DNA of 64,000 nucleotides from a virus. The notes under the pieces were generated by a model that did no database searches, had not been told where the DNA came from, and saw nothing but the letters and a program-made list of their open reading frames with translations. Both the position numbers and the translations under genes were made by a program. Location of the stretch: IMG/VR virus record IMGVR_UViG_2857776322_000004, positions 10,353 through 74,352 of that record; one strand, written 5' to 3'. Of the stretch, positions 5,673-34,180 are shown one piece after another. Within the stretch, counting starts at the first letter, position 1; the number at the start of each line of letters is the position of its first letter.

Positions 5673-6119
5673 TCAGCCCTGCGCCTCGAGGGCGGCCTTG
5701 GCGCGCTCGTACCACTCCACAGGCACGACGACAGCCACCCGCTTCCTGGCTCTGCTCGCGTCGACGACGAACTTCGGGAGATGGCCGTGGACTTCCTCCA
5801 GCGCCGTGGGCAGTACCTTGCGAAGTTGACCGACGAGGAGTTCGTCCCTGTCGAGAGTCCTCGGACGTGGCGCCCAGGGCGAGCCGATGACGTTGTGTCG
5901 AGAGCGCTCGACGCGTATGGCGCGCAGCTCTGCGGCGAGCGCGGAGGGGCGATTGTCGAACCACACCACCGAGCCCGACGCGACCTGCGGCCACCACGGC
6001 TTTTGGCGCGCATGCACGGTCAGCCGCGCGTAGGGGTTGATACCGATCCCGACGTACAGGAGCGCACCTTTCGCGTCGTACAGGCGGTACATCGCGGTTG
6101 GCTCGTTTTCAAGCCACAT
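5673..6119 (-). CDS. GIY-YIG nuclease fused to C-terminal Phd/YefM-like domain
   Basis: TAMYRLYD..LLYVGI..R..H..E..N; C-term VGQLRKVL..RVAVVVPVEWYE; RBS GGAGG. Confidence 0.85.
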   Translation of the reverse strand: MWLENEPTAMYRLYDAKGALLYVGIGINPYARLTVHARQKPWWPQVASGSVVWFDNRPSALAAELRAIRVERSRHNVIGSPWAPRPRTLDRDELLVGQLRKVLPTALEEVHGHLPKFVVDASRARKRVAVVVPVEWYERAKAALEAQG

Positions 6120-6134
6120 CTGAACCCTCCGGGG

Positions 6135-6332
6135 TTACACCGAGGAGGAGTCCCCCCGGTTTCTCTGGACCTCGATTGCCTCGGCATCTGGCACGGGAAC
6201 GATCGCGGCCACTCGCCTGCCTCGGCTGGTGACGTAGGTGATCTGGCCGCGGATGGCCGTCTCGTTCAGAACGTCGGACAGCGTGGTGCGCAGTTCGCGG
6301 ACGCCGATTTCGGAGCTTGTGTTCGCAGGCAT
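6135..6332 (-). CDS. Phd/YefM-family antitoxin-like DNA-binding protein
   Basis: IGVRELRTTLSDVLNE..ITYVTSRGRRVAAIVPV; ATG 6 nt after TAGCAT (leaderless-like). Confidence 0.85.
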   Translation of the reverse strand: MPANTSSEIGVRELRTTLSDVLNETAIRGQITYVTSRGRRVAAIVPVPDAEAIEVQRNRGDSSSV

Positions 6333-6338
6333 ACGCAC

Positions 6339-6382
6339 ATGCTAGCTGCGGTACGCTAGCGTACCTTGGTGTACACAAGGGT
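6339..6382 (-). promoter_or_regulatory. Operator/promoter of Phd cassette: 16-bp perfect palindrome GGTACGCTAGCGTACC (6350-6365), -10 TAGCAT (6344-6339), CCTTG-N7-CAAGG
   Basis: Read directly from sequence; function inferred. Confidence 0.6.
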
Positions 6383-6456
6383 TGTGGCGGAGACGGACTC
6401 CGCCCTCTGAGCGCACCCGTTCCCCATCTCCATGCACGGCAGAACGGACCATCTCC

Positions 6457-7443
6457 ATGGCACGTACTCACGCTCGCTTCTACACGACCATCTGGCGCGA
6501 TGCGGATTTCCGCCGGTTGCCGGGTTCGGCGCAGCGCATGTACTTCTTCCTGGCGTCTCAGCCGAATCTGACGCACGCGGGTGTGTTGCCGTTGACGTTG
6601 GCGCGTTGGGCGGCCTGTTCGGTGGACGGGTCGGAGCAGGAGCTGCTTGCGGATCTGGAGTTGCTGCACGAGCGCCGGTTCGTGGTGTTGGACCGGGCGA
6701 CGGAGGAGGTGATGATCCGGACGTTCGTCGTGGGCGACAAGGTGTACAAGATGCCGCGCGTGATGGGGTCGATGGTGGCTTCGGCGCAGCAGATCGAGTC
6801 GCCTGTGCTGCGCCGGACGCTGTTGGATGAGGTCGCGCGGATTCCGCTGGACGAGTTGAGTACGGAGCCGACGAAGAAGGCTCCTCACCTGTCGATTCGC
6901 GTCCAGGTGGAGGGGTTGATCGCGGAGCTGCGGGAGTCGTTCGGCGAGCCGGTCGCTTCGGCGGGTGTCGTCGACGGGGTGCCGCCGATGGATCCGGAGC
7001 CGCCCGGGGTGGATGCGCCGGTTCTCGATGCGGCTTTGGATCTGCGGTACCCGATTGCGCCTTCGGTTGCGGGTGTTCCGGATTGGCTTGCCCCGTTGGC
7101 TGGTGCGATGGCGCAGGCCGGGATCGGCGTCCCTTGGAGTTTCAAGGAGGGCGACTCCGAGCTGCTGCGTGCGGATGTCGAACGCGTGGGCCTGCGGGCG
7201 ATGTTCACGGAGGCGGTGGAGGCGTTCGCCGCCGCCGGCGACAAGCCGTTCTCCAGTCGCTGGTTCTACCCGCGGTGGCACGCCCTTCAGGTGGCTTCCG
7301 TAGTCCAGATGGGTTCCCGGCGTTCCAACAGCCGCCAGGCGCAGACGGATGACCAATACGAGCAGTCGCGTCGGGACGCGGAGGAGCGTCGTGCGGCGCG
7401 CTTGGCGGCGGAGGCGGGGGCACGGGCAAGGGGTGGTGGGTGA
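6457..7443 (+). CDS. Phage replication initiator-like protein (N-terminal HTH)
   Basis: ARFYTTIWRDADFRRL..AQRMYFFL.SQPNL..AGVLPL N-terminus common to actinophage replication proteins; precedes loader-like gene. Confidence 0.6.
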   Translation: MARTHARFYTTIWRDADFRRLPGSAQRMYFFLASQPNLTHAGVLPLTLARWAACSVDGSEQELLADLELLHERRFVVLDRATEEVMIRTFVVGDKVYKMPRVMGSMVASAQQIESPVLRRTLLDEVARIPLDELSTEPTKKAPHLSIRVQVEGLIAELRESFGEPVASAGVVDGVPPMDPEPPGVDAPVLDAALDLRYPIAPSVAGVPDWLAPLAGAMAQAGIGVPWSFKEGDSELLRADVERVGLRAMFTEAVEAFAAAGDKPFSSRWFYPRWHALQVASVVQMGSRRSNSRQAQTDDQYEQSRRDAEERRAARLAAEAGARARGGG

Positions 7444-8117
7444 TGGACGAGGTGGAGGCGGTGGATTTGGTGCGGTGGGTGCAGGCGTTGTGTCCGCAGC
7501 AGCACATCGACCGGTTGACGGGCGAGGCGTGGTTCGAGGTGTTGGAGCCGTTCGATTTCGAGGAGTGCAAGGCTGCGGCGACCGTGTGCGCTCGCGAGAA
7601 GCCGTTTGTGGCGCCGGCGGAGATCATCGCCGAGGTTCGGCGGGTGCATGCTGAGCGGTTGGCGTCGTTGGTGTTGTATGAGCCGGCGCCGGGCGAGGAC
7701 GTTGAGGGGTATCTCGAGCGGCTTCGGGCGCAGATCGCCGCGGTGGCGTCCGGGCGCAGTGTGCCGGAGATTGCGCGGGCGTCGGGTCCGCGGCTGCAAC
7801 TCGTGTCCGGTGGGGCAGGGCTTCGTGCGTTGCCTCCGGAAGTCGAGGCGGTGGTCGGGGGGTTGCGGCATCCGGCGCGGAGTGTGCGGTGTCCGTTGTG
7901 TGGCGCGCGCGAGGGGTTCTCGTGCCACTACTCGGATCGTCGCGTCGTGCCCACAGGGGCGCACGCGGAGCGGGTGGCGGTGTGGGCGGTGCAGCGGGTT
8001 GTGTGCCCGGCCTGCTCGGCGGTGCCGGGTACTCCGTGCCGGAGGTCGCCGGACGAGTCGTTGCGGCAGCCGGCGCATTCGGAGCGGGTGCAGGTGGCGG
8101 AGCGGGAGGCGGCGTGA
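7440..8117 (+). CDS. Helicase loader/inhibitor-like protein with C-terminal Zn fingers
   Basis: AW.EVL..FDF.ECKAA..PAEII N-term; CPLCGA..C and CPACSA..C. Confidence 0.55.
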   Translation: MMDEVEAVDLVRWVQALCPQQHIDRLTGEAWFEVLEPFDFEECKAAATVCAREKPFVAPAEIIAEVRRVHAERLASLVLYEPAPGEDVEGYLERLRAQIAAVASGRSVPEIARASGPRLQLVSGGAGLRALPPEVEAVVGGLRHPARSVRCPLCGAREGFSCHYSDRRVVPTGAHAERVAVWAVQRVVCPACSAVPGTPCRRSPDESLRQPAHSERVQVAEREAA

Positions 8118-8653
8118 TGTCGAAGGTCCCGGTCGAGTCGCTGATTCCGTTGGCCGCGCGGCTGATTGTGTTGGTGCACGGCGAGGGCGGCCGGTCCGAC
8201 ATAGGGGAGTTCCTGGCCGGGCTGAGCGACGACGAGCGTTGGGCGTTGCTCGTGGTCCTGGCCGCGATGGTCAATCCGGATCGGTCGCTGGGTGCGGCGC
8301 TGGGGTGGGTGGCGTGGGACGAGCGGGGTGACCCGGGGGCGCTGGGCCTGGCGGACACGCGGACGATCCGGGACGTCGCGCCGGACGTCGAAGCGGAGCC
8401 GTCATGCGGCGAGTTGATCGACTCGGAGGTTCTGAGGCGGGCGCTGGTGGGGGAGTTCGTTGATGCGTCGGATTCGGAGAAGCGCGCTGTGATTGAGGCC
8501 GCAGTGCGCGAGGGGGTCGAGCCTGTGGTCGTTTCCCGCGGCCTTGGTCTCGGTCTCAAGTGTGTGCAGAAGCAGATCGAGCGGGCCCGGGTGCGGCTCA
8601 CGAACGGAGGGACGGGTTGTGAGAACGCGGGTGTTCAGGGCGTCGCGAGCTGA
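8117..8653 (+). CDS. hypothetical protein (possible C-terminal HTH)
   Basis: ATG overlaps upstream TGA. Confidence 0.65.
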   Translation: MSKVPVESLIPLAARLIVLVHGEGGRSDIGEFLAGLSDDERWALLVVLAAMVNPDRSLGAALGWVAWDERGDPGALGLADTRTIRDVAPDVEAEPSCGELIDSEVLRRALVGEFVDASDSEKRAVIEAAVREGVEPVVVSRGLGLGLKCVQKQIERARVRLTNGGTGCENAGVQGVAS

Positions 8654-9095
8654 CGGTGGATGGGTGGTGACGTGTCTGGATGAGCGGTGTCGCCCGGATT
8701 CCCTCGGCTGCGAATGGGGTGGGCATGTGGTTGTGGTGGTTTCGGGTGAAGGCAGTGCGAAACGAGCGGAATCGGTGCATCGCCGCTGGTTGAGGTCCCT
8801 GCCGCGTGAGAAGCGAGTGCCCGTGATGTACGTCGTGGAGCGGTATGACGGCCGGTGGGCAGCGTTCTGCGAGGACGAGCGCTGCGCGCCGCATTGCGAG
8901 AAGGGTTCGCGACACTGCCTGGCCGTTACCCGATACAGGAGCAGCGCCAGAAGGGCCGTGGTCAGGCACCGCTGTTGGTTGCGGTCGGTGCCGCGTTTGG
9001 CTGCCCCGGAGGCGGTGCCGTGCGGGCCGGTGTGCGGCACGTGTGGTGGGCCGATCGCTGGCACGGTGGCGGGGGGTGCGGCATGTCGGTCGTGA
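8619..9095 (+). CDS. Cys-rich protein with internal tandem domain duplication
   Basis: GTG 8 nt after GGAGG; two copies of W..C.DERC.P...SA.RA..HR.WLRS.P. Confidence 0.6.
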   Translation: MRTRVFRASRADGGWVVTCLDERCRPDSLGCEWGGHVVVVVSGEGSAKRAESVHRRWLRSLPREKRVPVMYVVERYDGRWAAFCEDERCAPHCEKGSRHCLAVTRYRSSARRAVVRHRCWLRSVPRLAAPEAVPCGPVCGTCGGPIAGTVAGGAACRS

Positions 9096-9577
9096 TGTCT
9101 CCGTTGCTGCGCTGTGACGGGCGTGAGAGCGCGGGCGTTCGGTGTTCGTCGGAGTTGGTGGCGCCGGTGTCCGCGCGCACGGCCGAGGAGGTGCGGGCGT
9201 TCGCGTCGGCGGTGGGTTCGGGCAAGCCGGACGAGGGCCTGGACTGGTGTCCCGAGTGTCGTGGGTGGCGTGTGGATTCGCTGGCGGGTGCTTCGCGTCC
9301 CGAGGTGCGTCCGCAGGAGTTGCAAGTGTTGCGGGGGATCGCCCGCGGACTGACGAACGGTCAGATCGGTAGGGAGTTGTTCATCACCGAAGAGACGGTG
9401 AAGGGCTACCTGAAACACCTGTACAAGGCGCTCGGGGTGAAGACGCGTGCAGCTGCGGTCGGGGTGGGATTCCGGGCCGGGCTGTTGACCCTCGACGACG
9501 AGGCGATCAGGCCGATGGGCTCGAAGCGCGAAGCAGGGCAGGCGTCGGTCGACGGCAGGACTCGGAGGGATTCATGA
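9083..9577 (+). CDS. LuxR-family HTH regulator
   Basis: QELQVLRGIARGLTNGQIGRELFITEETVKGYLKHLYKALGVKTRAAAV. Confidence 0.9.
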   Translation: MSVVMSPLLRCDGRESAGVRCSSELVAPVSARTAEEVRAFASAVGSGKPDEGLDWCPECRGWRVDSLAGASRPEVRPQELQVLRGIARGLTNGQIGRELFITEETVKGYLKHLYKALGVKTRAAAVGVGFRAGLLTLDDEAIRPMGSKREAGQASVDGRTRRDS

Positions 9578-10701
9578 CCGAGACCCATGGAACGGTCGAC
9601 TCCGAGGTGGCGGTACCGCACTACGAGAAGTGGTCGACGGTGCCCCGATATTTGCTCACCCGTACCCAGCACGCCGAACTGGACCTGCCGCGCACCCCCT
9701 CCGGTCGGGTCGCTGCGAGGGTCACAGGGAAGGACTTCAAGGGCAAGCGAGCGACGTTCGATTTGTTCGACGTTCGAGAGTCGACGCCTACCCGCACCGG
9801 GGTGGCGAGGCTCCTGGCCTCCGATCCGGCGCTGTACACCTGCGGCCACTGCGGCGCCCACGACGAACGACCCACGAATGCCCGCCTGTACGGCAGTCCA
9901 CTGCTGTGTTCGACGTGTTTCGACGCCGACAGGATCGCCGTCGCCCAGCAGCGGGCCCGCAATACCCGCGCGGACCAGACGACGTGGGCCCGCAAGGTGT
10001 TGGCAGATCCGTCGGCGGTCTGGGTCCACGTGCACAAGGAACCCCGGGTGCGGGCCGGTGACGGTGGTCCGAGGTGCCCGGTGTGGACGGTGACGGCCGT
10101 CGATGCCACGAGGGCCTGGGTGCTGCGGATGGTTGTGCGCCCGAATGGCGCCCGGGCGGCGAATGCTCCTGCGAGCGCCGTTGACGAGGCCACTGCGGCG
10201 AAGCGGATCGCGCGCAAGTTGGGCGGCCGTCGGATCGTCGCGTGGGACTACGCGCACGCCGAACCCCTGATCCGGTGGGCAAAACAAGGCGGCCGGCCCG
10301 TGGTTCACGACTTTCGCGATGCGCTCCACGATCGCCTTGTTGGGTGGCGCGGTCTTGTCGATCGCAGAGGCCACGTCGTTCACACCTGCGTGTCACCGGG
10401 CCGGGCGGACCGTCTCCTGGTGGCGACCGTCCGCATGGCGGAGATCACCAGCGCCGCCGACGACCACCGGGCCCTCCTCGTCGCCGACCCGGGAGCGACC
10501 GTCGTCGACATCGCCGGCCGCCCCGAAAGCGCCTTGCGGCTGCACGCGATCCTGCGGGCGGTCGGTGTGGTCGTCGGCGACGCCGAGCCCACGCTCGTCG
10601 AGGTACCCGACGCGGGGGGCATGGTCCGCTTGCGGATCCTGTGCCACCGCGACGGTGTGGTTCGTACCGGGCCCCTCGGCGACGCCACTGAGGATGCCTG
10701 A
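9574..10701 (+). CDS. hypothetical protein (Zn ribbon, possibly degenerate exonuclease-like C-terminus)
   Basis: CGHCG..CSTC; coupled start. Confidence 0.7.
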   Translation: MTETHGTVDSEVAVPHYEKWSTVPRYLLTRTQHAELDLPRTPSGRVAARVTGKDFKGKRATFDLFDVRESTPTRTGVARLLASDPALYTCGHCGAHDERPTNARLYGSPLLCSTCFDADRIAVAQQRARNTRADQTTWARKVLADPSAVWVHVHKEPRVRAGDGGPRCPVWTVTAVDATRAWVLRMVVRPNGARAANAPASAVDEATAAKRIARKLGGRRIVAWDYAHAEPLIRWAKQGGRPVVHDFRDALHDRLVGWRGLVDRRGHVVHTCVSPGRADRLLVATVRMAEITSAADDHRALLVADPGATVVDIAGRPESALRLHAILRAVGVVVGDAEPTLVEVPDAGGMVRLRILCHRDGVVRTGPLGDATEDA

Positions 10702-10970
10702 TGGCCCGCACACCCGACGGCCGCCTCCGCACGCCCACCCCGGCGGAACTCAACCTCACCGACGTCGTGTCCGACGCCATCGCACGTGTCGCCGACGACC
10801 CCGACCACGAGGGCGACCCGTTCTGGCTCGCCGTCGCCGCCGTCTCCGCAGTCGTCGACCAGGGGTGGACACCCCCGCCGCCTGGATGGATCCCGCCCGC
10901 CAGGCCCGACATGCGCGGGCAGGGCGACCTGCTGACCGCCCCCACGCCCACCACCGGGAGCACACCGTGA
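10701..10970 (+). CDS. hypothetical protein
   Basis: TGATG coupling, codon bias. Confidence 0.7.
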   Translation: MARTPDGRLRTPTPAELNLTDVVSDAIARVADDPDHEGDPFWLAVAAVSAVVDQGWTPPPPGWIPPARPDMRGQGDLLTAPTPTTGSTP

Positions 10971-11758
10971 CCGACCAGCCGTACACCCAGGAGGACCTCC
11001 TCGCCGAGGCCACACGCCGGCGCCGCGACCGCACCACCTGGGACCTCGTCGACACCGTCATCCCCAGCACCGGCCTGTCCTGGGCGCACCTGTGCACGAA
11101 GGACTACTCGATCGCCGACGAGGAGATCCGCCGCCTCGTCCGGGGCGCCCCCGACCTGTCCGAGTGGGCGGTCGCCATGGGCGGCGACGGACTCCAGCCG
11201 TCCACCCACACGCTCAGCCTCCTCGGCGACGGCAAACACCCCTTTGGGCGGCTCCACTTCGCGTTCGAGGCGGACATGCCCGAGGACGCCCGCCGGGCCC
11301 TGATCGTTCTCGTCGGCGAAGCCCTCCAGGATGCCCTCGCCCAGAGGGTCCCGACCCGACTCACCACACACGGCCGCAGCCCGGCCGACAACCTGACGGA
11401 GCCCCAGCCGATGCCCGACCCCGAGCCTCCTGCCGACACCATCCGCCGGGCCGCCGACCTCATGCGCACCCGGGCTGCCGCAGCAACCCGCGGACCCTGG
11501 CTGTCCATGGATGGCGGCGACCGTCTCGTTCACGACCCCGGCCACGACTACGACCCGCCGGAGTACGTCGTCGACGAGCCGATGTCCTCGGCGGCGAATG
11601 CGGAGCACATTGCCGCGCTGCACCCGCTCGTCGCGGTCGCCATGGCGAACGTCCTGGAGCAGTTGGCCCGCAGCATCGACGAGTGCGACTTCTACGGCAC
11701 GCCCGCTTCGGCGCTCGCCCTCGAGCTGGCGTACACCTACCTGGGGAGGGAGGCGTGA
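10967..11758 (+). CDS. two-domain hypothetical protein (5254 paralog + ATRGPW..AEHIA Ead/Ea22-like domain)
   Basis: GTGA coupling; internal paralogy. Confidence 0.75.
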   Translation: MTDQPYTQEDLLAEATRRRRDRTTWDLVDTVIPSTGLSWAHLCTKDYSIADEEIRRLVRGAPDLSEWAVAMGGDGLQPSTHTLSLLGDGKHPFGRLHFAFEADMPEDARRALIVLVGEALQDALAQRVPTRLTTHGRSPADNLTEPQPMPDPEPPADTIRRAADLMRTRAAAATRGPWLSMDGGDRLVHDPGHDYDPPEYVVDEPMSSAANAEHIAALHPLVAVAMANVLEQLARSIDECDFYGTPASALALELAYTYLGREA

Positions 11759-12075
11759 CCGAACCCACTGCGGCGCCGATTGACCCGGGCGCGCTCCGGG
11801 CCGCCATCGACACCCTCAACGGTCCCTGCCGCACGAAGACCGATCTCGACGCCTCAGTGGCCGCCATCGACGTGCTCGACGGCGCCATGCCCACCGTCCT
11901 CGACCTGGTCGACCGGCTCACGGCCGAACGGGACCAGAAGGCCGCCGCTCTCGCCCGGGTTCTCGCCGAGTACGACGCGAGCTGGGCCGCAGCCGACTGC
12001 TACGGCGACGGTGACGTCGCGACCCGTGACCTCGTTGCCCGCATCCGCGCCGCCATCGAGGAGCCGACCCAGTGA
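11755..12075 (+). CDS. hypothetical protein
   Basis: GTGA coupling, RBS GGGAGG. Confidence 0.7.
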   Translation: MTEPTAAPIDPGALRAAIDTLNGPCRTKTDLDASVAAIDVLDGAMPTVLDLVDRLTAERDQKAAALARVLAEYDASWAAADCYGDGDVATRDLVARIRAAIEEPTQ

Positions 12076-12320
12076 CCGACCGCATCGACGTGTACGACGG
12101 CCTGCTGAACGCCGGCTGGACCGAGAACTCCGAGGGCCACCTGCGCTTCGGCCGGGCCCTGTGGAGCCTGCTCGACGACGACGGCGAGTGCACGGTCGCG
12201 GTCGGCGGCGCCGCCCACGCCCCGGGGTGGAGTGTGTGGTTCCCGGCCGAGGTGCCCGACGCGATCGTTCTGGGAGTGGCCCGGGCTGCGATCGAACTGG
12301 CCAAGGCGGCGGGCCGATGA
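12072..12320 (+). CDS. hypothetical protein
   Basis: GTGA coupling. Confidence 0.7.
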   Translation: MTDRIDVYDGLLNAGWTENSEGHLRFGRALWSLLDDDGECTVAVGGAAHAPGWSVWFPAEVPDAIVLGVARAAIELAKAAGR

Positions 12321-13570
12321 CCGACCAGCCGAGCACCGAGCCGCTCGACCTCGACGCGATCCGGGCCGACCTGGCCGTCGTGACCTCGCGGATCCAACCG
12401 GACGGGATCGTCGAGTGGTTCGCAGCGAAAGCCCGCCTCGCGACCCACGTGTCCGCGCTGCTGGCCGCACTCGCCGACGCCGAACGGCGCGTCGCCCTCG
12501 CACAGCGCATCGCCCACCGCGACGACTACGACCTCGACGTCGACCTACCCGGCGTGATCGGCGACGGCCTGTGCGGGATCGACTGGGACGGCGACGACCA
12601 CCCGCCGCAGTGGCTGGTCGATCGGGTCGTCGGGATCGTCCGGCCGCACCTGGCTCGGGCGACGGAGCGAGCCGAGTGGCGGGGGCTGGCGTGGCGGTCG
12701 GCCCGGGAGCGGGCCGTGCGGCTGCGGGCGGGGCTCGCCGAGGCCCGCGACGCCATGGACGAGGCGAGCAGCGCTCTGCTCCGCGCGGACGCGGTGGTCC
12801 TCGACGCGCGGGCCTGCATGCAGCGGCGGGCGGCCGACGAGGTGGATGCGCGGGCCGAGGGCCGGCAACTCCGGGCCGCACTCGCCGAGCGGGACGCCGA
12901 GATCGAGCGCCTGCGCACCACCGCCGTCGTGATCGGCCCCGGCCTGGGCGCCCTGACGGCGGACCTCGCCGGACGCGTGGCGGCGGAGATCGGACGCCGA
13001 GACGAGGCGGACGCGGATCCCGGGCGTGGGATGCCCACGCGGGGCGACTGGCGGCTGGCGCGGGACCGGACCCGGGCGGCCGAGCATGCGGCCGAGCGGC
13101 TGGAGGCCGAGCGGGACGAGGCGTGGGCCGACGCTGCCCGGCTGCGGTCGGCGTGGCGGTCCGCCTGGCGGGGCCGGCACGAGCTGCGGGCCGAGCACCG
13201 CGACGCCGTGGCCGTGGCCCGGTGGGCAGTCGCCGAGAACTACGCGCTCAAGCGCGCCGTGGGCTGGATGCGCGTCACCGACAAGCTCCCGGCCGCCGAG
13301 CCGCCGCTGTACCCGCCGATCGTCGAGTGGGTCGTCCAGGCCCACGAGCCGTGGAGCCGGTATGCAGCGGCGGACGGCTGGGTCAAGGACGGGGCGCCCT
13401 ATGCCACCCGGGAGGAAGCCCACGCTCGGGCTACCCGGTGGCGTGCGCGCCCGGGTTCACCGGCGGTGCGGGTGCTCCGGGTGGAGTCGACGCACTGGCT
13501 CGATGGCCCACGCGCCCCCGAGAGCCCCGCAGACGCGCCCGACCCGTCCAACGACTCATGCCCGACATGA
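12317..13570 (+). CDS. coiled-coil-rich hypothetical protein
   Basis: ATGA coupling; Ala/Arg/Glu heptad-like stretches. Confidence 0.7.
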   Translation: MTDQPSTEPLDLDAIRADLAVVTSRIQPDGIVEWFAAKARLATHVSALLAALADAERRVALAQRIAHRDDYDLDVDLPGVIGDGLCGIDWDGDDHPPQWLVDRVVGIVRPHLARATERAEWRGLAWRSARERAVRLRAGLAEARDAMDEASSALLRADAVVLDARACMQRRAADEVDARAEGRQLRAALAERDAEIERLRTTAVVIGPGLGALTADLAGRVAAEIGRRDEADADPGRGMPTRGDWRLARDRTRAAEHAAERLEAERDEAWADAARLRSAWRSAWRGRHELRAEHRDAVAVARWAVAENYALKRAVGWMRVTDKLPAAEPPLYPPIVEWVVQAHEPWSRYAAADGWVKDGAPYATREEAHARATRWRARPGSPAVRVLRVESTHWLDGPRAPESPADAPDPSNDSCPT

Positions 13571-13595
13571 AAACCACACGGACCGGAGGAACTGC

Positions 13596-13829: not shown

Positions 13830-13948
13830 GCCGACGACAGGACCCAGCGGGCGGCGGAGGACGCCCGGCGCCCGCTGAGCCCGCAGACGGGCACACAGCC
13901 ACACGCACGGGCCAACCACGGCCCGGCCGACGACAGGAGACAGCACCG

Positions 13949-14179: not shown

Positions 14180-14187
14180 CCTGCGCA

Positions 14188-22492: not shown

Positions 22493-22511
22493 GCCTCCGA
22501 AGGGCCTTGCC

Positions 22512-26672: not shown

Positions 26673-26677
26673 CCACC

Positions 26678-27565
26678 ATGCCCACCGTTCACCTCACCAC
26701 GGGCCTGCCCGCCTCCGGCAAGACCGGCCTGGCCCGGGGCCTCGACGCGCTCCGGTTCAGCCTGGACGACTACCGGGCGATGATGCGCCGCGACAGGTCG
26801 ACCTGGAACGGCGACCTGGAGAAGATCGCCGTCGAGGCGATGATCCGCTCCGCGCACGCCGCCGTCGAAGGCGGCCGCGACATCGTCGTCGACAACACCC
26901 ACCTGACCGCGAACCTCCCCGGCAGATACAAGGACGCGTTCCCCACCGCGGTGTTCCGCGTGCACGACCTCATGGCCGTGCCCGTCGAGGAGTGCATCCG
27001 CCGCGACGCCGAACGCGAACAACCCGTCGGCGAGGACGTCATCCGCAACCTCCACGCCCGACACGTCAAGGCCACGCGCAACGGGTGGCGCCTGACCGAC
27101 GCGTGGATGAACGACCGCCACACACCCGATCCGTACATCCCCGACACCAGCCTGCCCACGGCGGTTCTGTGCGACATCGACGGAACCCTCGCCCTGAACG
27201 AGAGCGGACGGGGACCCTACGACTTCCACCGGTGCGGGGAGGACACCGTCAACCGGGCCGTTGCCGACGAACTTGCCCTGCACGACCGCGCCAACCACAT
27301 CATCGTCCTGCTCTCCGGCCGCGGCTCCGAGTACCGGCCCGAGACCGTCGCGTGGCTCGCAGCCCACGGCATCGCCTACGACGAACTGTGGATGCGCCCC
27401 CTGGGGGACTTCCGCCGCGACGACCTCGTCAAGGCCGAGCTGTTCGACAAGCACGTGCGCCACCGATTCGCCGTGCGCTTCACCCTCGACGACCGGGACC
27501 GCGTCGTGGCGCTGTGGCGCCGCATGGGAATCCCCACCTGGCAAGTCAACTACGGCGCGTTCTGA
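26678..27565 (+). CDS. T4-like polynucleotide kinase/3'-phosphatase (Pnkp)
   Basis: P-loop GLPASGKT; HAD CDIDGT, LSGR, LDDR. Confidence 0.92.
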   Translation: MPTVHLTTGLPASGKTGLARGLDALRFSLDDYRAMMRRDRSTWNGDLEKIAVEAMIRSAHAAVEGGRDIVVDNTHLTANLPGRYKDAFPTAVFRVHDLMAVPVEECIRRDAEREQPVGEDVIRNLHARHVKATRNGWRLTDAWMNDRHTPDPYIPDTSLPTAVLCDIDGTLALNESGRGPYDFHRCGEDTVNRAVADELALHDRANHIIVLLSGRGSEYRPETVAWLAAHGIAYDELWMRPLGDFRRDDLVKAELFDKHVRHRFAVRFTLDDRDRVVALWRRMGIPTWQVNYGAF

Positions 27566-27589
27566 TACGCCCCGACGAACGGAGCCGAC

Positions 27590-27763
27590 GTGGACGACGT
27601 CGAACGGGTCCGCGACGTGGTCGCGTGGATCCGCGCCGAGGCGCGGAAGCGGCGATCGAGTTGCGTCCCCTGGTTGCAGATCGCCGACAAGATCGACCCC
27701 GACAAGGCCGGCGACCCGAACCACCGCGGCCTGCGCTCGTACTGGGATCAGGTGAGGGAGTGA
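27590..27763 (+). CDS. hypothetical protein (57 aa)
   Basis: GTG after GGAG; stop overlaps next start. Confidence 0.55.
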   Translation: MDDVERVRDVVAWIRAEARKRRSSCVPWLQIADKIDPDKAGDPNHRGLRSYWDQVRE

Positions 27764-28143
27764 ACTCCTGGCATCACGCCCAGTCGTCCGCCCGCAAATG
27801 GGGCGGCGAACCCGACGTCTACCTGCCGATTCACGAACTGATCGACTCAAGCAAACGCGTGATCGGCGACGTCCGACACCGCTCGCTCTACCACCACACC
27901 GCCGGGGTCTGGCTTTGCCAGGAGGTGTTCGGCGTGACCCTCGACGTCCCCCGGCGACACGGCACACTCCGGGTCCCCGTGCGGCTCGTCGCCGAACAGC
28001 ACGTCCTCGAAGACCTCGGATGGCTCCCCAGCCCCGCCGACTACCTCGACGGCATGCCCATCAAGCCCTGGATGTCCGGCAGCCGGCGCAAGTCCGTCCC
28101 CCTGTCCCACCTACTCCTCGACCCGCCCGGAGACCCCAAGTGA
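27760..28143 (+). CDS. DUF6915-like His-rich protein
   Basis: HAQSSARKWGG..IHELIDSSK..RHRSLYHH..AEQHVLEDLG. Confidence 0.75.
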   Translation: MNSWHHAQSSARKWGGEPDVYLPIHELIDSSKRVIGDVRHRSLYHHTAGVWLCQEVFGVTLDVPRRHGTLRVPVRLVAEQHVLEDLGWLPSPADYLDGMPIKPWMSGSRRKSVPLSHLLLDPPGDPK

Positions 28144-28634
28144 GCACCGAACACCGCACTTTCCTCGGCCTCGTCGTCAAAGGCGACATCACCCGAGGCA
28201 AACGTGCGGAGCAGCGGCCCCTCGAAGAACTCCAGCCGCTCCTCCAGGCCGTCCTCGACGACCCGACCATCATCGAGTTCGGGTGGCGGCAATACACCCC
28301 GTACTTCGCGGACGGCGATGTGTGCGAATTCGGCGTCCACGGACTCTGGTTCCGCACCGACATCGACGACGAGGACGCGAGCACGTGGGACCTGGAGGTC
28401 TTCGGGCACCCCAGCCTCGGCGAGGAGCCGGGTACTTGGGACGAAACCGCGAGGGACTACGTGGTCGGACCCTACGAAGGACCCGACAAGGCTCGGTACG
28501 AGCGCTGCCGCAACCTTGCATCCGCAATCACCGACAGCGCCTTCGAACACGTCCTGCTCGCGGCGTTCGGGGACCACGCCCAGGTGACGGTCCGCAAGGA
28601 CGGCATCGAAGTCGAGACCTACGAACACGAATGA
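28140..28634 (+). CDS. acidic conserved hypothetical protein coupled to DUF6915
   Basis: WRQYTPYFADGDVCEFGV..FGDHAQVTV..YEHE. Confidence 0.75.
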   Translation: MSTEHRTFLGLVVKGDITRGKRAEQRPLEELQPLLQAVLDDPTIIEFGWRQYTPYFADGDVCEFGVHGLWFRTDIDDEDASTWDLEVFGHPSLGEEPGTWDETARDYVVGPYEGPDKARYERCRNLASAITDSAFEHVLLAAFGDHAQVTVRKDGIEVETYEHE

Positions 28635-28671
28635 CCCACGGCGAGCAACGGCACGGCTGAACGGAACGCCC

Positions 28672-29349
28672 GTGAACGACACCACCCCCTCCCCGGACGG
28701 ACCCGCCTGCGCCGTCTGCGGCTACGCCCTCCACGGCGACCAACAGGACCGCACCGCCTGCCGCCACTGCGAAACCCGCGTCGACGCGCACCTGGAATCC
28801 CTCCCAGGCCACTACGCGGCACTCGCCGACGCCCTCCTCCCCGGAGCCCACGCCGAGGGGACTCCCGTGTCCGGAACGCGCGTCCCACCACTGCCCGTCC
28901 AGCTCGAGGCGCTGAACCTGCGCGCCCCGGGCGGCATGGTCACGATCCTCACCGAGTGGGAGGACGACTGGCGCCGCCTCTACGGCTGGGCACCCCCAGG
29001 CCCCCGCGGCCGCGCCGAGGAAGCCCTCGACAACACCGTGCGGTTCCTCCGCAACAACCTCGGTTGGGCATGCCGCCAGCACCCGGCCATCGGCGAGTTC
29101 GCCCACGAGATCGGCGACCTCGTCGCACGCAGCAAGGCCGCCTGCGGCAAACGCAGCGACGCCAAATACGTCGGCAACTGCCCAGGCCCCGACGACGAAC
29201 GGCCTTGCGGCGCACGCCTGTACGCCGACCCCTGGATGGACTTCATCCGCTGCCGCCTCTGCCGCTGCGAATGGCCCCGATCCGAATGGATCGGCCTCGG
29301 CATCCGCATGCACGGCGGAACACCCCCCACCGCGAAAAGGATTGCCTGA
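28672..29349 (+). CDS. Zn-finger protein (possible transcription regulator)
   Basis: CAVC..CRHC; C-term CP..CG..CRLC. Confidence 0.7.
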   Translation: MNDTTPSPDGPACAVCGYALHGDQQDRTACRHCETRVDAHLESLPGHYAALADALLPGAHAEGTPVSGTRVPPLPVQLEALNLRAPGGMVTILTEWEDDWRRLYGWAPPGPRGRAEEALDNTVRFLRNNLGWACRQHPAIGEFAHEIGDLVARSKAACGKRSDAKYVGNCPGPDDERPCGARLYADPWMDFIRCRLCRCEWPRSEWIGLGIRMHGGTPPTAKRIA

Positions 29350-30293
29350 TGGGTCGCGAAGTGCGACGAGTGCCCCTGGACTTCGACTGGCCACTCAACA
29401 GGGTTTGGAGCGGCTACCTCATGCCGGACGAACTTCGAGAAGACCCGTGCCCGGACTGCGAGAGCGGGTGGTCGCCGCACGCCCAACACCTCTACGACCA
29501 GTGGTACGGCAAGGCCCCCTTCGACCCCGCGAGCACCGGCTCGACGCCCCTCCGGCACGAAACCCCCGTCGTGCGCGCGCTCGCCGAACGCAACATCCAG
29601 CACGCCCCCTCGTATTACGGCAGTGGCGAATACGCAATCGTCCGCGAGGCGCGGCGACTCGCAGACATGTGGAACACACAATGGGGCCACCACCTCTGCC
29701 AGGCCGACGTCGACGCACTGGTCACCGACGGTCGGCTGATGGACTTCACCCACACGTGGACCCGCGAAACGGGGTGGCGGAAGATCGAACCTCCCGTCAC
29801 ACCGACCGCCGCAGCAGTCAACGAATGGTCCATAGGCACCCTCGGACATGACTCGATCAATGCACATATCGTGATCCGCGCGCGTTGCGAACGCGAAGGC
29901 ATCGACGACACCTGCCCCACGTGTCAAGGCCACGCCACCGTCGAAACCTACCCCGGCCAGCGAGCCGAAGCCGAGGCGTGGGAGCGAACCGACCCGCCCG
30001 ACGGCGACGGCTGGCAACTGTGGGAGACCGTGAGCGAGGGCTCACCGGTCTCGTCCGTATTCGCGACAGCCGACGAGCTGGCCGAGTGGATGACGCTGCC
30101 CGAGCGCGCAGAACGGCGGCTCTCACTCGACGTCGCGCGACGGTTCGTCGCCGACGGCTGGGCGCCCACGTTCGTGGGCGTGCCCGGCATCGGCCTCCTA
30201 TCGGGAGAGGCGTTCATCGGCGGATTCGCAGACCCCGCCGCAGTGCCCGACGACGCCTCGGACCTGACGGTCGACGGGGAGGAACCCGCATGA
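29349..30293 (+). CDS. conserved phage hypothetical protein
   Basis: MGREVRRVPLDFDWP..GWQLWETVSEGSP.S.VF. Confidence 0.75.
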   Translation: MGREVRRVPLDFDWPLNRVWSGYLMPDELREDPCPDCESGWSPHAQHLYDQWYGKAPFDPASTGSTPLRHETPVVRALAERNIQHAPSYYGSGEYAIVREARRLADMWNTQWGHHLCQADVDALVTDGRLMDFTHTWTRETGWRKIEPPVTPTAAAVNEWSIGTLGHDSINAHIVIRARCEREGIDDTCPTCQGHATVETYPGQRAEAEAWERTDPPDGDGWQLWETVSEGSPVSSVFATADELAEWMTLPERAERRLSLDVARRFVADGWAPTFVGVPGIGLLSGEAFIGGFADPAAVPDDASDLTVDGEEPA

Positions 30294-30775
30294 GCGGCCT
30301 CGTGACAGCCCTGACTACGTTCGTTCGCGCCCGGATCGAAGAAGACGAAACCGTCGCCCGCCAGGCAACCCCCGGCCCCTGGCATCAACGCTGGGAAGGC
30401 CAGGAACTCCAGGTCTATGCACCGGGCCAGGCGTACCCGTACAGCGTCGCAACGTGGACCTACCTGATTCACACCGGTCCTCGCGCCGAAGAGGAGCGAG
30501 CCACGTGCAACACCTCGAACTCCGACCACATCACCCGGCATCACCCCCTCCGCGTACTGCGCGAGGCCCAGATGAAGCGCGCCATTCTCGCAGCCCACCC
30601 GATCACCGACCACGTGATCCCGCCCGGCTACGGACCGGGAGGTGAACCGTTCGGGTGCAAGGTCTGCCACGACTGGGATGGCGCCACCGAAGGCCGCGGA
30701 TACTGCGTCACGCTCCGACTCCTGGCCGGCATGTATGTCGACCACCCCGATTACGAGGAAGCCTGGAGACCATGA
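30290..30775 (+). CDS. DUF6221-like protein
   Basis: FVRARIEED..ATPGPW..RVLRE..KRAIL..TLRLLAGMY.DHPDY..AWRP. Confidence 0.75.
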   Translation: MSGLVTALTTFVRARIEEDETVARQATPGPWHQRWEGQELQVYAPGQAYPYSVATWTYLIHTGPRAEEERATCNTSNSDHITRHHPLRVLREAQMKRAILAAHPITDHVIPPGYGPGGEPFGCKVCHDWDGATEGRGYCVTLRLLAGMYVDHPDYEEAWRP

Positions 30776-31089
30776 ACAGCGAGCGCGTCCGGCAACCCTG
30801 TACTTCCGACGCAGCCGGCAGTACAGGGACTCCGACGGCCGCCGACAGGGCGAACCTCGACCCGAAGCCCTGGATCTACAAGGACCACCCCGCGAACGGC
30901 GACTGGTCCACCGAACCCTGGCAGTGGACCATCCCCGGCTGCCCCTGCGACATCGACGGAGGAGACCTTCGGAACCACCACTGGATCATCGTCTACGCCC
31001 ACGCCCTGGCGCACGCCGCACGCTGCCCGGCGATGCCTAGACCGGCCGCGCCAGGCCAGGGCGCAGCCGCTCGAACACCGGATGCCTGA
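30772..31089 (+). CDS. hypothetical protein
   Basis: ATGA coupling; overlaps convergent ligase end. Confidence 0.5.
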   Translation: MNSERVRQPCTSDAAGSTGTPTAADRANLDPKPWIYKDHPANGDWSTEPWQWTIPGCPCDIDGGDLRNHHWIIVYAHALAHAARCPAMPRPAAPGQGAAARTPDA

Positions 31090-32017
31090 GATACCCGCCC
31101 GACGTCCACCCCGTCGCGCTCACCTCGGCAACCAGCCGCGGCTCCACCCAGCGCGCACCACGACCCTCACTCACCGGCCCCGCGAACGGCGACGTCTCGC
31201 GCGGCACAACCGCGAACAGCTCCGCGAGCTGCCGCTGCTCCGCACCGGACATGCCCGATCCCACGGCCCCGACGAACCGCAACCCGCCGGCCTCGGCAAC
31301 GCCCACCAGGAGCGCACCGGGAACACCACCGGACCGGCCCCGAACCGGCAGCCAACCGCCGATCACCACGTCGATGCGGACCTGGTGCTTGATCTTGATC
31401 CACTCGTCCGAGCGCACCCCGGGCCGGTACGGCGACGTCAGCAACTTGCAGACGATCCCCTCGAAACCCTGCTCCCGCGTCAGCTCGAACGCCCGGCGGC
31501 CGTGGCCCACCGTGTGCGCAGGCGTCGCCCAGCGGGCACCCGCCAGACCCAGGCCCAGCAGTTCGCCGCGGCGCGCCGTGTACGACTCGGTCAAAAGGCT
31601 GCGACCGTCCAGGTGCAGGACGTCGAAGATCATCAGATGTACGGGCGTCGTGCGCGCGAGCCGACCCGCCCTGGCCCCGTCGCGCACGGTCATCCGCGTC
31701 TGAAGGGCCCCGAAGTCGGGGCGGCCCCGCTCGTCCAGGACGACCACCTCTCCGTCGAGAATCGCCGGACGGCGCAGCGAGGCTCCGAGCGCGGCCAGCT
31801 CCGGATAGGTACCCGACGCATCCCGGCCGGTGCGGGTTACCGGGCGCGCCGTCCCGTCGCCCGAGCAATAGACGAGCAGCCGGGCGCCGTCCCACTTGAC
31901 CTCGTAGCCGTAGAGGCCGTCGACGGCTGCCGACGGGAGACGGCCGGGGGAGGCCAGCATCGGGGACAGCCGGGGGAGGCCCACCGGTCCCGCCGCCGAG
32001 GGGCGCCGCGTCGCCAT
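31037..32017 (-). CDS. ATP-dependent DNA ligase (LigD/LigC-type ligase domain)
   Basis: SPMLA, EVKWDG, ILDGEVV, FDVL, EGIVCK, WIKIK, OB-fold FVGAVGSG..LRHP.F. Confidence 0.9.
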   Translation of the reverse strand: MATRRPSAAGPVGLPRLSPMLASPGRLPSAAVDGLYGYEVKWDGARLLVYCSGDGTARPVTRTGRDASGTYPELAALGASLRRPAILDGEVVVLDERGRPDFGALQTRMTVRDGARAGRLARTTPVHLMIFDVLHLDGRSLLTESYTARRGELLGLGLAGARWATPAHTVGHGRRAFELTREQGFEGIVCKLLTSPYRPGVRSDEWIKIKHQVRIDVVIGGWLPVRGRSGGVPGALLVGVAEAGGLRFVGAVGSGMSGAEQRQLAELFAVVPRETSPFAGPVSEGRGARWVEPRLVAEVSATGWTSGGYLRHPVFERLRPGLARPV

Positions 32018-32123
32018 GCAACGAGCCTCACGCCGCTCGGCCCTCCCCGCACCCGGAGTCGGCCGACCGGGCGACAGCACAGAAGAGGGGCGCTCGCCGC
32101 AGCGAACACCCCTCCCGAACCTC

Positions 32124-32309
32124 TCAACCCAGGCGACCGGCCAACATCGCCCACGCGCCCACCGGCACGACGATCACCGGCGACCACGCGTCCTTGCTGT
32201 CCCGCACACCCACCCCAGTGACCAGGCGCGCGACCTCTACGCAGTAGTCCTGTTCGCTGTGGCGGGACTTTCGCCACTGCGGTACGCGGTTACCTCCAGA
32301 GCCGTACAC
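32124..32309 (-). CDS. DUF397 (BldB-like) protein
   Basis: WRKSRHS..CVEVA..VGVRDSK..AW. Confidence 0.88.
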   Translation of the reverse strand: MYGSGGNRVPQWRKSRHSEQDYCVEVARLVTGVGVRDSKDAWSPVIVVPVGAWAMLAGRLG

Positions 32310-33181
32310 ACGTCTCGCCTTCGTCGATCCACCAGTTCCAGTGACGCCTCGGGCGACAGGGCAGCCTCGACCAATCGGTCGAACGTCCTCCGGAACGTAC
32401 CGATGTCGTCCGGCGCGTCGACCAACTGGGACCCCGTCAACTGCTCAAGCCACGCCGCGAAGTGCCCAGGCTCAGTCTCCATCAGAACCATCGGAGACGA
32501 CACCGTCCACGGCGAAGTGAACGGCAGAACCTGGAAGCGCAGCATGGGCCAACGGGACGCCAACATCAGCACGTGCTCCAACTGGTCGGCCAGCACCGAC
32601 AGGCCGCCGATCGGGTGGTACAGCGCGGCCTCGGACACGACGAACCAGGCCGGTACCTCGCGCTCCACGTAGTCCACCGCACGCGCCACCCGGATCCGCT
32701 GCCGCTCTGCGGCCACCTCCGGCAACAGCGTCGGATCCTGCATGTGGATCGTCGCCCACGCACACTGCGGCGACTGCAACGGCCCAGGGAACCGCAGCGT
32801 CTCGAAGCCGAACACGCTCAAAGCACCTTCCTCGAGGCGCATCAGTCGGCGCAGGCGATCGGGCACGCCGTTCAGCAAGTCCCGCATGCCTTCGCCGTAG
32901 CCGTCCTCCTCAGCGTCCATCTCGAAGTCCAGCGGACGAAAGCCGAGTTCGGTGAGCCTGCGCCCGAACATTGCCTCCAGGATGTGCTGGTAGACCGCCG
33001 TGGGCCTCGGCGGATTCGCCGACTCCCACCTGCGGATGTGTCGCACCGACAGACCGACGGGACGACCCAGAACTTTCGCCGCTTCCTCGAAGGCAGCGGC
33101 GAACTCGGCTTGCGAGTACCAGCCCATGGCCAAGCGAGCGGAGACCAGCGCGGGGTTCCCGGGAGTATGGGTGCGGGTCAT
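32237..33181 (-). CDS. XRE HTH-DUF5753 regulator
   Basis: N-term HTH (SQAEF..IRRWE); C-term FETLRFPG.LQ..R..RQ..SEAAL..QLEH..QVLPF..F.RL..ALSP. Confidence 0.85.
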   Translation of the reverse strand: MTRTHTPGNPALVSARLAMGWYSQAEFAAAFEEAAKVLGRPVGLSVRHIRRWESANPPRPTAVYQHILEAMFGRRLTELGFRPLDFEMDAEEDGYGEGMRDLLNGVPDRLRRLMRLEEGALSVFGFETLRFPGPLQSPQCAWATIHMQDPTLLPEVAAERQRIRVARAVDYVEREVPAWFVVSEAALYHPIGGLSVLADQLEHVLMLASRWPMLRFQVLPFTSPWTVSSPMVLMETEPGHFAAWLEQLTGSQLVDAPDDIGTFRRTFDRLVEAALSPEASLELVDRRRRDVCTALEVTAYRSGESPATANRTTA

Positions 33182-33714
33182 GACGCCCGTCCCAGGGAGC
33201 TTCGAAGGCTCTGGACTCGCGGCTGCCGGAGGCGCGGGACGCGGTGTTCGCGTGCCAGCGTGCGCAGCGATTCGTAGGTCCACGGGGTCAGAGGGGCAAT
33301 CTTGGTGGCGGAGACACCCGCGCGCATCTCCTCGAGGATGACTTCCTCGAGGCGGGTGCGGGCGGCGGTGAGTGCCTGTTCGGCGAGGTGGTAGTCGGCC
33401 CTGCGGCTGGTGAAGTGTGTGGACGGGGTCCAGGTGCTTCGGCGGGGCGGACGGGCCACCTCGGCGCCGAGTACGCCGGGTGCCACGTTCCATCGGGGCC
33501 GGTCGTGGGCGATCGTCAGTGCCTCGGCGGATTCCGCCTCGTCGCGCGTGTCGAACCACTCGACCTCACGGGTGACGACTTGGCCCCACCAGGGCGACTG
33601 ACTCGTGTGGTCCGCCCAACGCCGGCGGGGGTTGGTGGCGATGCCGACGTAGATGAGTGCGTCGCCGGCGTCGAAGAAGCGGTAGACCGCGGTGCGGCCC
33701 TTGTGCACGGCCAT
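33178..33714 (-). CDS. GIY-YIG nuclease fused to C-terminal HTH paralogous to 33728-34015
   Basis: TAVYRFFD..LIYVGI..R..H..E..N; C-term 32/79 identical to upstream gene by manual alignment. Confidence 0.85.
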   Translation of the reverse strand: MAVHKGRTAVYRFFDAGDALIYVGIATNPRRRWADHTSQSPWWGQVVTREVEWFDTRDEAESAEALTIAHDRPRWNVAPGVLGAEVARPPRRSTWTPSTHFTSRRADYHLAEQALTAARTRLEEVILEEMRAGVSATKIAPLTPWTYESLRTLAREHRVPRLRQPRVQSLRSSLGRAS

Positions 33715-33727
33715 GCATGCCTCCGGA

Positions 33728-34015
33728 TCAGCCGGAGGCGGGGCCTCCGGACGGGTCTGACGTGTCCCTGATGGATCGAACGGTGGGTGGTCGCTTCAGC
33801 GGAACGCCGTACTCGCGGGCAATGCCTCGTAGCTTTTCGTGGGACCACGGCACGACCTCGGCGACCTTCTTGGGGCTCGCGTCCGGGTGCCGCAGTTCCT
33901 CGGCTGCGGTCTCGCGCAACTTGGTCTCGGCGAGTGCGAGTGCGGCTTGCGCCGCCTCAAACTCCGCCAGTACCGCGAGGAGCCGAGCGCTCGGTTCGTA
34001 GGTGTCCTTGGCCAT
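33728..34015 (-). CDS. small helix + HTH DNA-binding protein
   Basis: SPKKVAEVVPWSHEKLRGIAREYGVP; own promoter upstream. Confidence 0.8.
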   Translation of the reverse strand: MAKDTYEPSARLLAVLAEFEAAQAALALAETKLRETAAEELRHPDASPKKVAEVVPWSHEKLRGIAREYGVPLKRPPTVRSIRDTSDPSGGPASG

Positions 34016-34037
34016 GACGGCATGTTCGCACAACCGG

Positions 34038-34138
34038 TTTGGCCATTGCGATTGCCCTGCACCGACCATAGATAGGACAGGCGATTTGGTCAAGGTAGCT
34101 TGGTCACTCTTGTTTGGCCAAACTATCTGTCCTAAACT
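34038..34138. promoter_or_regulatory. Divergent promoters with four TTGGYCA operator boxes
   Basis: minus: TTGACC(34093-88)-N17-TATGGT(34070-65); plus: TTGTTT(34110-15)-N17-TAAACT(34133-38); boxes at 34038, 34085, 34099 and 34113 (TTTGGCCAAA). Confidence 0.7.
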
Positions 34139-34180
34139 GGAGTCAGAAGCACCCGGTGATTCCAACCGAAGGGGCCTGCC

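Follow-up and report, generated by a model that had tools for sequence, protein, structure and literature searches.

We analysed a 64,000-nucleotide (nt) stretch of viral DNA, hereafter the window (IMG/VR record IMGVR_UViG_2857776322_000004, positions 10,353 to 74,352), in which two leftward gene cassettes each encode a small DNA-binding protein, designated X, followed by a GIY-YIG nuclease with a C-terminal DNA-binding tail. Both cassettes had been pointed out in an earlier note on this DNA, and both are present. In the reading that we prefer, and hold tentatively, each cassette is a mobile accessory module of temperate actinobacterial phages or integrative elements, namely a site-directed nuclease of the homing or exclusion type with its own controller. 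This reading starts from features observed directly: the folds, the conserved catalytic residues, the shuffling of domains between loci, the coupling of the genes, the operator-like boxes kept in orthologous loci and the adjacency to replication genes. Coordinates are listed in Table 1.

Two GIY-YIG nucleases and their upstream genes

The N-terminal 80 residues of the cassette 1 nuclease (P0001) and the cassette 2 nuclease (P0003) are 41% identical (E = 1e-20). Tyr11, Tyr22, Gly24, Arg32, His36 and Glu64 are invariant over 24 diverse homologues, and Asn76 is invariant within each subfamily. The relatedness of the two domains and the retention of the Y, G, R, H, E and N positions, as described in the earlier note, are thus borne out. 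The Y, Y, R and H residues appear to be spaced as in I-TevI. Against the Pfam model PF01541 (cut-off 22.6 bits), P0003 scores 36.4 bits and P0001 scores 19.5 bits, under the cut-off. In the AlphaFold2 (AF2) models the GIY-YIG core has the beta-beta-alpha-beta-alpha fold and shows a predicted local distance difference test score (pLDDT) above 90, and the top Foldseek matches are the UvrC N-terminal domains 1yd6 and 1ycz with a probability of 1.0. According to the sequence comparisons and the models, both proteins belong to a compact GIY-YIG subfamily with a catalytic domain of about 70 residues, and the nuclease core is apparently active.

In P0001 the GIY-YIG domain (residues 8-76) is joined through a flexible linker to a tail of Phd fold (residues 93-147). 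The AF2 model has a pLDDT of 89, and Foldseek assigns the N-terminal domain to UvrC GIY-YIG and the tail to Phd/YefM, both with a probability of 1.0. The MWLD start is kept in 17 homologues. No match of this downstream gene to a toxin family was obtained in Pfam, NCBIfam or PADLOC. The upstream protein X1 passes the Phd cut-offs (30.2 bits against 29.8 for PF02604, and 28.1 against 20.8 for TIGR01552). An alternative GTG start is located at 6338, and the X1 orthologues in the loci L014 and L023 begin with MPANT.

P0003 is composed of the GIY-YIG domain (residues 8-76), a disordered linker, and a tail formed by a 33-residue helix (residues 99-131) and a helix-turn-helix (HTH) motif (residues 136-156). 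Thirteen full-length homologues were found. The AF2 model has a pLDDT of 80, and the N-terminal domain is again assigned to UvrC GIY-YIG by Foldseek with a probability of 1.0. The tail has no Pfam match, and the Foldseek list contains no convincing match attributable to it. The upstream protein X2 (P0004), which also has no Pfam match, aligns end to end with the nuclease tails; its domain covers residues 3-90 of 95. The family shared by X2 and these tails is designated hHTH-A. A search of the hHTH-A profile against the PDB sequences gave only a weak match, a 'CAP repeat' chain (E = 0.017).

Repeated boxes are present upstream of each X gene and are conserved in orthologous loci, in agreement with the palindromic operators facing a divergent operon that the earlier note had described. 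In the case of cassette 1, L014 and L023 repeat the layout GTAC-N6-GTAC-N4/5-TGTACA immediately before their Phd genes, although their flanks differ. In the case of cassette 2, six TTGGYCA boxes are found within 114 bp (34008-34121), as against 17 matches in the whole 64 kb; the first box (34008-34014) is located just within the X2 coding start. In the orthologous locus L008 the boxes keep the spacing of those in cassette 2 but have an altered sequence (TTGAACA/TGAACA). By these comparisons, the boxes before both X genes are credible candidate operators.

The description of both cassettes as two-gene units in the earlier note has to be extended for cassette 2. There, the nuclease stop codon and the start codon of an XRE-DUF5753 gene share an ATGA, and a DUF397 gene comes next. 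The overlap and the synteny of the nuclease and XRE-DUF5753 genes are also found in L008. According to this arrangement, cassette 2 exceeds two genes, and the nuclease is translationally coupled to the XRE-DUF5753 gene. DUF397 genes are the usual partners of XRE-DUF5753 genes. An ATP-dependent ligase gene comes after the DUF397 gene on the same strand. A seventh box (TTGGCCA) is located at 33127-33133 (-), just within the start of the XRE-DUF5753 gene and about 50 nt past the nuclease stop.

Families of X and tail across loci

The earlier note described each tail as matching the gene upstream, and proposed that a nuclease had been grafted onto a duplicate of the local repressor. The cassette 2 tail indeed shows 39% identity to X2 over 83 amino acids (aa) (E = 2e-12). 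The match of the cassette 1 tail to X1 is weak (37% over 57 aa with gaps, E = 9e-4), and in neither cassette is the neighbour the closest relative. The P0001 tail scores 42 with its own X, 51 and 56 with Phd genes beside unrelated GIY-YIG genes, and 39 with another one. P0004 scores 158-224 with six unrelated stand-alone members, as against 153 with the tail of its own neighbour, and the P0003 tail is closest to other GIY-YIG tails, not to X2. At two further loci with hHTH-A as both X and tail, L074 and L075, the tail from the same locus comes 37th and 82nd among 165, respectively. The own neighbour was thus never the best match in the comparisons made with the P0001 tail, P0004, L074 and L075. 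The signatures of the HTH and basic arm also differ between X and tails (GIAxEYGVPLKR versus xLAxxxxVPRxR), and the alignment shows no genome-specific covariation of the two. These sequence comparisons indicate that in both cassettes the tail and the upstream gene are members of a common family and not a local duplicate, and the graft onto a duplicated neighbour is given up; a tendency at the level of the family remains. A tree of X and tails seemed to suggest that X arose from the tail; this idea was rejected as well, since three groups meet at one node of the tree, with the rooting undecided, and since the seeming rarity of X was not upheld by the profile search described below.

The GIY-YIG profile was detected in 43 of 401 sampled Streptomycetaceae genomes and in a few other actinomycete families. 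In 23 of about 55 analysed loci, a small gene (135 aa or less) on the same strand lies within 120 nt upstream of the nuclease, often overlapping it. Thus, the part of the earlier claim that concerns a recurrent module, and not a coincidence, stands; the term 'new system' goes too far, since modular proteins of nuclease and DNA-binding domains are known and the family has already been annotated.

One conserved nuclease domain carries Phd, helix-HTH, XRE, ribbon-helix-helix (RHH)-like or GntR winged HTH tails. X and tail are of the same family at L002, L014 and L023 (both Phd), at L001, L008, L074 and L075 (both hHTH-A), at L010 (both XRE) and, weakly, in the mycobacteriophage Llama. They differ in family at L021 (Phd X and RHH-like tail), L072 (Phd X and hHTH-A tail), L037 (RHH X and XRE tail), L038 (HTH X and RHH-like tail), L073 (DUF6907 X and hHTH-A tail), L029 (X of another HTH class and GntR winged HTH tail), L033 and L071. 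The tail of one locus can be the X of others; the L033 tail matches X of L029, L052 and L057. Small upstream genes of the same kind precede not only GIY-YIG nucleases but also Endonuclease VII (L077) and T5orf172 (L081 and L082) nucleases. By these family assignments, X and tail combine freely over some 65 related loci. Because many loci pair unlike folds, heterodimerisation of X with the tail cannot be the general principle.

The same comparisons bear on self-protection by competition, in which X would occupy the resident sites that the nuclease would otherwise cut, so that only incoming operator-bearing DNA is cleaved. The same-family pairs in the Phd, hHTH-A and XRE classes and the clustered operator boxes adjoining the cassettes are consistent with it. 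There is also a precedent in Odn (Gp88) of the phage ICP1, a T5orf172 nuclease with a RepA DNA-binding domain copied from the enemy element, which directs cutting of the rival's origin; the origin cleavage was shown experimentally (Barth et al., 2021; PMC8263062). X and the tails are, however, separate conserved lineages with differing signatures and no genome-specific covariation, and many loci pair unlike folds. We consider this explanation unlikely.

For the hHTH-A family, a profile was built from the X and tail sequences and searched against 1.8 billion representatives. The search gave 256 clusters, and the apparent rarity of X in a word-indexed search was overturned by this exhaustive profile search. 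Pfam has no model for the family. Stand-alone proteins of about 80-120 aa make up 93 of the 163 classified members (150 listed ones and earlier matches), and GIY-YIG fusions make up 32; the remainder comprises fusions to T5orf172/MUG113 (T5orf172 in P0126 and P0160) or Endonuclease VII (P0196), tandem doubles, and proteins with C-terminal extensions of no assigned family. The tandem doubles are P0086, P0087, P0100 and P0103, and in P0127, P0134, P0136 and P0151 an N-terminal hHTH-A domain is joined to an uncharacterised C-terminal half of about 80 aa. A stand-alone hHTH-A gene is also found before an Endonuclease VII-HTH gene in L077 and before a frameshifted GIY-YIG gene in L080, and RHH-like genes precede T5orf172-hHTH-A fusions (L081 and L082). 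The gene after the stand-alone hHTH-A gene in L080 (L080:1312-2022) starts GIY-YIG-like (GRTALYRLYDKAGRL) and then loses the frame; it is a pseudogene or an assembly error. The family merits a definition of its own.

Genomic setting

A divergent gene is located upstream in 17 of the 22 modules with X, and eight of the 22 are fully inverted islands. Seven further inverted islands were found (L071-L074, L077, L081 and L082). The inverted islands sit within co-directional arrays of small phage genes, in early regions.

The nuclease gene is directly beside initiator or helicase-loader genes in at least ten loci. These genes belong to at least five PHROG families and occur in either orientation; the nuclease is divergent from the replication gene in the window, L023 and L072, and by the arrangement co-transcribed with it in L031, L034, L050, L055 and L066. 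Stop-start overlaps between the two genes were observed in L034, L050, L055 and the likewise co-transcribed gp70-gp71 pair of the mycobacteriophage NormanBulbieJr. The initiator of the window (6457-7443) is homologous to NormanBulbieJr gp71 and to a gene of L031, both of which directly adjoin a GIY-YIG gene. In L034, the initiator (L034:1205-2431) beside a tail-less GIY-YIG gene holds an internal segment resembling an HNH endonuclease (PHROG 5718, 7e-151), and two differing nuclease modules are thus present at one initiator.

This adjacency, together with the co-transcription and the overlapping codons in several loci, would also suit a nuclease that serves the element in its own replication or recombination, for example by nicking at or close to the origin, and is neither selfish nor defensive, with X merely an early-region repressor. 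The nuclease is nevertheless patchily distributed even between close relatives, occurring in about 10% of genomes, and most phages that share these initiator families lack it. Its tails vary wildly, the initiator families differ independently, and the window cassette points away from the replication operon. A replication function is therefore quite improbable.

The same GIY-YIG subfamily is encoded by cluster F mycobacteriophages, where about 190 phage records label it 'GIY-YIG endonuclease'. Llama gp43, Avani gp47 and NormanBulbieJr gp70 carry the annotation 'G-I-Y Y-I-G endonuclease', with subfamily matches of E = 5e-21 and 5e-29, the latter being that of gp70 with the family profile. Gp70 is directly upstream of gp71, a putative replisome organiser. 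In a genome-wide screen of that phage, overexpressed gp70 was reported to be moderately cytotoxic (score 2; bioRxiv 10.64898/2025.12.12.693979), which is the one indirect indication of DNA cleavage in the family. In Llama and Avani, a 64-aa helix-HTH gene overlaps the gene of a GIY-YIG-helix-HTH protein next to the integrase. BLASTP did not align Llama gp44 with the tail of gp43, and only weak profile matches (E about 2e-3) tie both to hHTH-A; by these matches they are probably a same-family pair of X and tail. The cluster F genes thus share the subfamily with the window cassettes, and those of Llama and Avani also the layout, whereas the hosts and the tails differ.

The window has a G+C content of 70% and is part of a contig of 7 Mb in a Streptomycetaceae genome of 11 Mb (G000). 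The closest named relatives of its proteins are from Embleya. Judged from the gene content, nearly the whole window reads as one large temperate-phage-like region. Nucleotide searches gave no close relative of this prophage in the phage collection. The genes are mostly rightward, an arrangement interrupted chiefly by the two leftward cassettes. Among the rightward genes are those of RNA-repair enzymes, the replication initiator and a C5 methyltransferase. Three further assignments, read from the translations alone and without a profile search, are putative, namely a terminase-like gene near 62 kb, glycosyltransferases and a Ro60-type gene.

Table 1. Features of the two cassettes and of adjoining genes (window positions)
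Feature	Position	Strand	Matches and remarks
C5 cytosine methyltransferase, converging on cassette 1	3909-5213	+	
136-aa protein between methyltransferase and cassette 1	5254-5664	+	PHROG 34277
P0001, 148-aa GIY-YIG nuclease with Phd-fold tail	5673-6119	-	15 nt downstream of X1; PHROG 16880 2.8e-20
X1, Phd/YefM-type DNA-binding protein (65 aa) that opens cassette 1	6135-6332	-	Pfam PF02604 4e-7; TIGR01552 9e-7
Divergent control region of cassette 1	6339-6456	.	GTAC-N6-GTAC palindrome (16 bp, GGTACGCTAGCGTACC) at 6350-6365; TGTACA element at 6370-6375
Replication initiation protein, first gene of divergent rightward operon	6457-7443	+	PHROG 3171 4.5e-39; PHROG 8064 9e-34
DUF397 gene, last small gene of leftward operon	32124-32309	-	Pfam PF04149 1.6e-13
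XRE-type HTH + DUF5753 gene	32237-33181	-	Pfam DUF5753 5e-34; ATGA overlap with nuclease stop
P0003, 178-aa GIY-YIG nuclease with hHTH-A tail	33178-33714	-	13 nt downstream of X2; Pfam PF01541 6.7e-9
X2 (P0004), 95-aa long-helix + HTH protein, hHTH-A member	33728-34015	-	hHTH-A profile (256 clusters)
Divergent control region of cassette 2	34016-34180	.	TTGGYCA boxes including palindrome TTTGGCCAAA

The genes next to cassette 1 suggest a further explanation, a restriction-modification-like unit in which the C5 methyltransferase protects the DNA and the Phd protein is the C protein for a GIY-YIG restriction enzyme. The methyltransferase converges on the cassette 1 nuclease, methyltransferase genes are also near the module in L073, L074 and L080, and GIY-YIG restriction enzymes exist (Eco29kI and PD-T4-3 are among the Foldseek matches). 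On the other hand, cassette 2 and most loci lack a nearby methyltransferase, phage methyltransferases are common in general, and an unrelated gene, that of the 136-aa protein, intervenes at cassette 1. The latter gene and the P0001 gene are convergent, with 8 nt between their stop codons at 5664 and 5673. Such a unit is very improbable.

Other genes of the window and of the genome were also noted. A HicA-like 64-aa gene and the next gene of 187 aa, possibly HicB-like, are in the rightward operon at 37506-38284 (+); Microbacterium phage Bachaco matches the HicA stretch, and nothing else in this region had a nucleotide match in the phage collection. A paralogous pair is located with one gene on each side of cassette 2 (30290-30775 (+) and 39188-39565 (+)). 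Its common N-terminal motif, ARxxEDE..A..ATPGPW, resembles that of genes flagged DUF6221 in the related phage contigs L078 and L082. The same genome has a third member of the GIY-YIG subfamily with an N-terminal extension (C5:4821-5075, L003), whose Cys/His-rich tail of 136 aa is common to L012, L013, L018 and L067. A truncated GIY-YIG copy is on another small contig (C8:8652-8777, L004).

Proposed role and relation to known systems

As a mobile accessory module, the cassette would work as follows. The compact GIY-YIG domain would cut DNA, and the C-terminal tail, of Phd fold or helix-HTH, would give sequence-specific binding through the flexible linker, as in I-TevI and ICP1 Odn. X would bind the repeated boxes before its own gene, autoregulate the operon and repress the divergent promoter, and would limit or time the nuclease in the way that C proteins control restriction endonucleases. 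Related or competing replicons would be the likely targets, either by homing into nuclease-less relatives or by exclusion of rival phages and plasmids. Since the site beside replication initiators is frequent, the origin or initiator region may be the target. We infer the nuclease activity, the binding site of the tail, the function of X as repressor and the biological target.

The design of a homing endonuclease or of Odn is suggested by a conserved nuclease core joined by a linker to a tail from a pool that also serves T5orf172 and Endonuclease VII. Both are catalytic types of homing endonucleases (F-CphI in PMC6083498 and Odn in PMC8263062). The sporadic distribution and the inverted islands fit homing and do not demonstrate it. 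As for X, a transcriptional controller fits better than a protein-binding antitoxin, because X is nearly a pure DNA-binding domain, is interchangeable across folds and nuclease types, and faces conserved boxes.

Several points weigh against a homing or exclusion nuclease with a controller. The cleavage site, the target and a presence/absence homing polymorphism are hypothetical. Classical free-standing homing endonuclease genes are, to our knowledge, single and without a partner. Phd, RHH and XRE are classic antitoxin folds. In addition, X and tail are of the same family in four of the eight hHTH-A-tailed loci with context, which is above indifference and hints at a functional interplay.

The antitoxin folds lead to a type II toxin-antitoxin-like or abortive-infection module, in which X is an antitoxin that inhibits the nuclease, as the toxin, by binding to it, perhaps as a heterodimer with the tail where the folds match, and also represses the operon. 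The small DNA-binding gene stands first and is tightly coupled or overlapping by 4 nt, and the X folds (Phd, RHH-like and XRE) are as in type II antitoxins. The promiscuous swapping of partners is as in toxin-antitoxin networks, same-family pairs recur, and one family member, NormanBulbieJr gp70, is cytotoxic when overexpressed. But X has little or no toxin-binding extension beyond its DNA-binding domain, as seen from the domain limits of P0004. A single X family is found with nucleases of three unrelated folds, and the X proteins of a single nuclease subfamily come from at least five unrelated folds; specific neutralisation through protein contacts would hardly allow for this. Furthermore, PADLOC gave only insignificant PDC-S14 matches, and tail-less and X-less members occur in replication operons (L031, L034, L055 and NormanBulbieJr gp70). 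We therefore regard a toxin-antitoxin-like function as doubtful.

An interplay of X and tail may nevertheless apply to the same-family cases, because such pairs are too frequent for indifference. There, X could gate the nuclease through mixed dimers or competition for sites, which on the present comparisons we think improbable. If it were true, the prophage would keep a sequence-directed nuclease inactive towards its own DNA and let it act against incoming relatives. This would be a new logic of immunity, with a paralogue of the DNA-binding domain as the antidote, built repeatedly from Phd, helix-HTH and XRE.

The module is of interest for several reasons. It is common, being present in about one-tenth of the Streptomycetaceae genomes and in roughly 190 sequenced mycobacteriophages, and apart from the cytotoxicity score of gp70 it has been annotated only and not studied. 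Within one genomic niche of temperate phages, beside their replication and immunity controls, catalytic domains of three nuclease types are recombined with at least six small DNA-binding folds, and antitoxin folds such as Phd serve as the DNA-binding tail of a nuclease. If the nucleases are site-specific, they would form a natural library of compact nucleases programmable by swap, and would be a likely mechanism of actinophage competition or gene spread. Literature searches gave no paper on the paired module, and the text of a 2006 survey of GIY-YIG proteins does not mention mycobacteriophages, Streptomyces or antitoxins. The design principle itself is already known from homing endonucleases and ICP1 Odn, and the genes are already annotated as GIY-YIG endonucleases.

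The module shares features with four known systems. In common with Phd/Doc and YefM/YoeB, the small gene comes first, a palindromic operator is present, X1 is over the Phd thresholds, and the P0001 tail has the Phd/YefM fold. The downstream gene, however, encodes a predicted DNA nuclease with a Phd fold of its own and not Doc, YoeB or RelE, and X has no evident toxin-binding extension. The C proteins of restriction-modification systems are small dimeric DNA-binding proteins encoded just upstream of the nuclease gene, often overlapping it, with palindromic boxes before their own gene. The module differs from them in that there is no obligatory methyltransferase and X is of several unrelated folds; regulation by X is also what we infer here.

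Compared with I-TevI and the Seg homing endonucleases of T4, the catalytic domain is shorter, a small DNA-binding partner is co-transcribed, and the tails are Phd, RHH, XRE and GntR folds and not NUMOD/IENR1 modules. The GIY-YIG domain at the N-terminus, the flexible linker and the C-terminal DNA-binding module, which is sequence-specific there and predicted here, are alike, and so are the sporadic genes between conserved phage genes, often near replication or nucleotide-metabolism genes. Compared with ICP1 Odn, whose DNA-binding domain is N-terminal and which has no upstream partner gene, the present family has C-terminal tails, upstream X genes and a DNA cleavage activity that is predicted. 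Both are phage-encoded nucleases of the GIY-YIG superfamily with shuffled domains, joined to a DNA-binding domain that is also found in a separate regulator or initiator.

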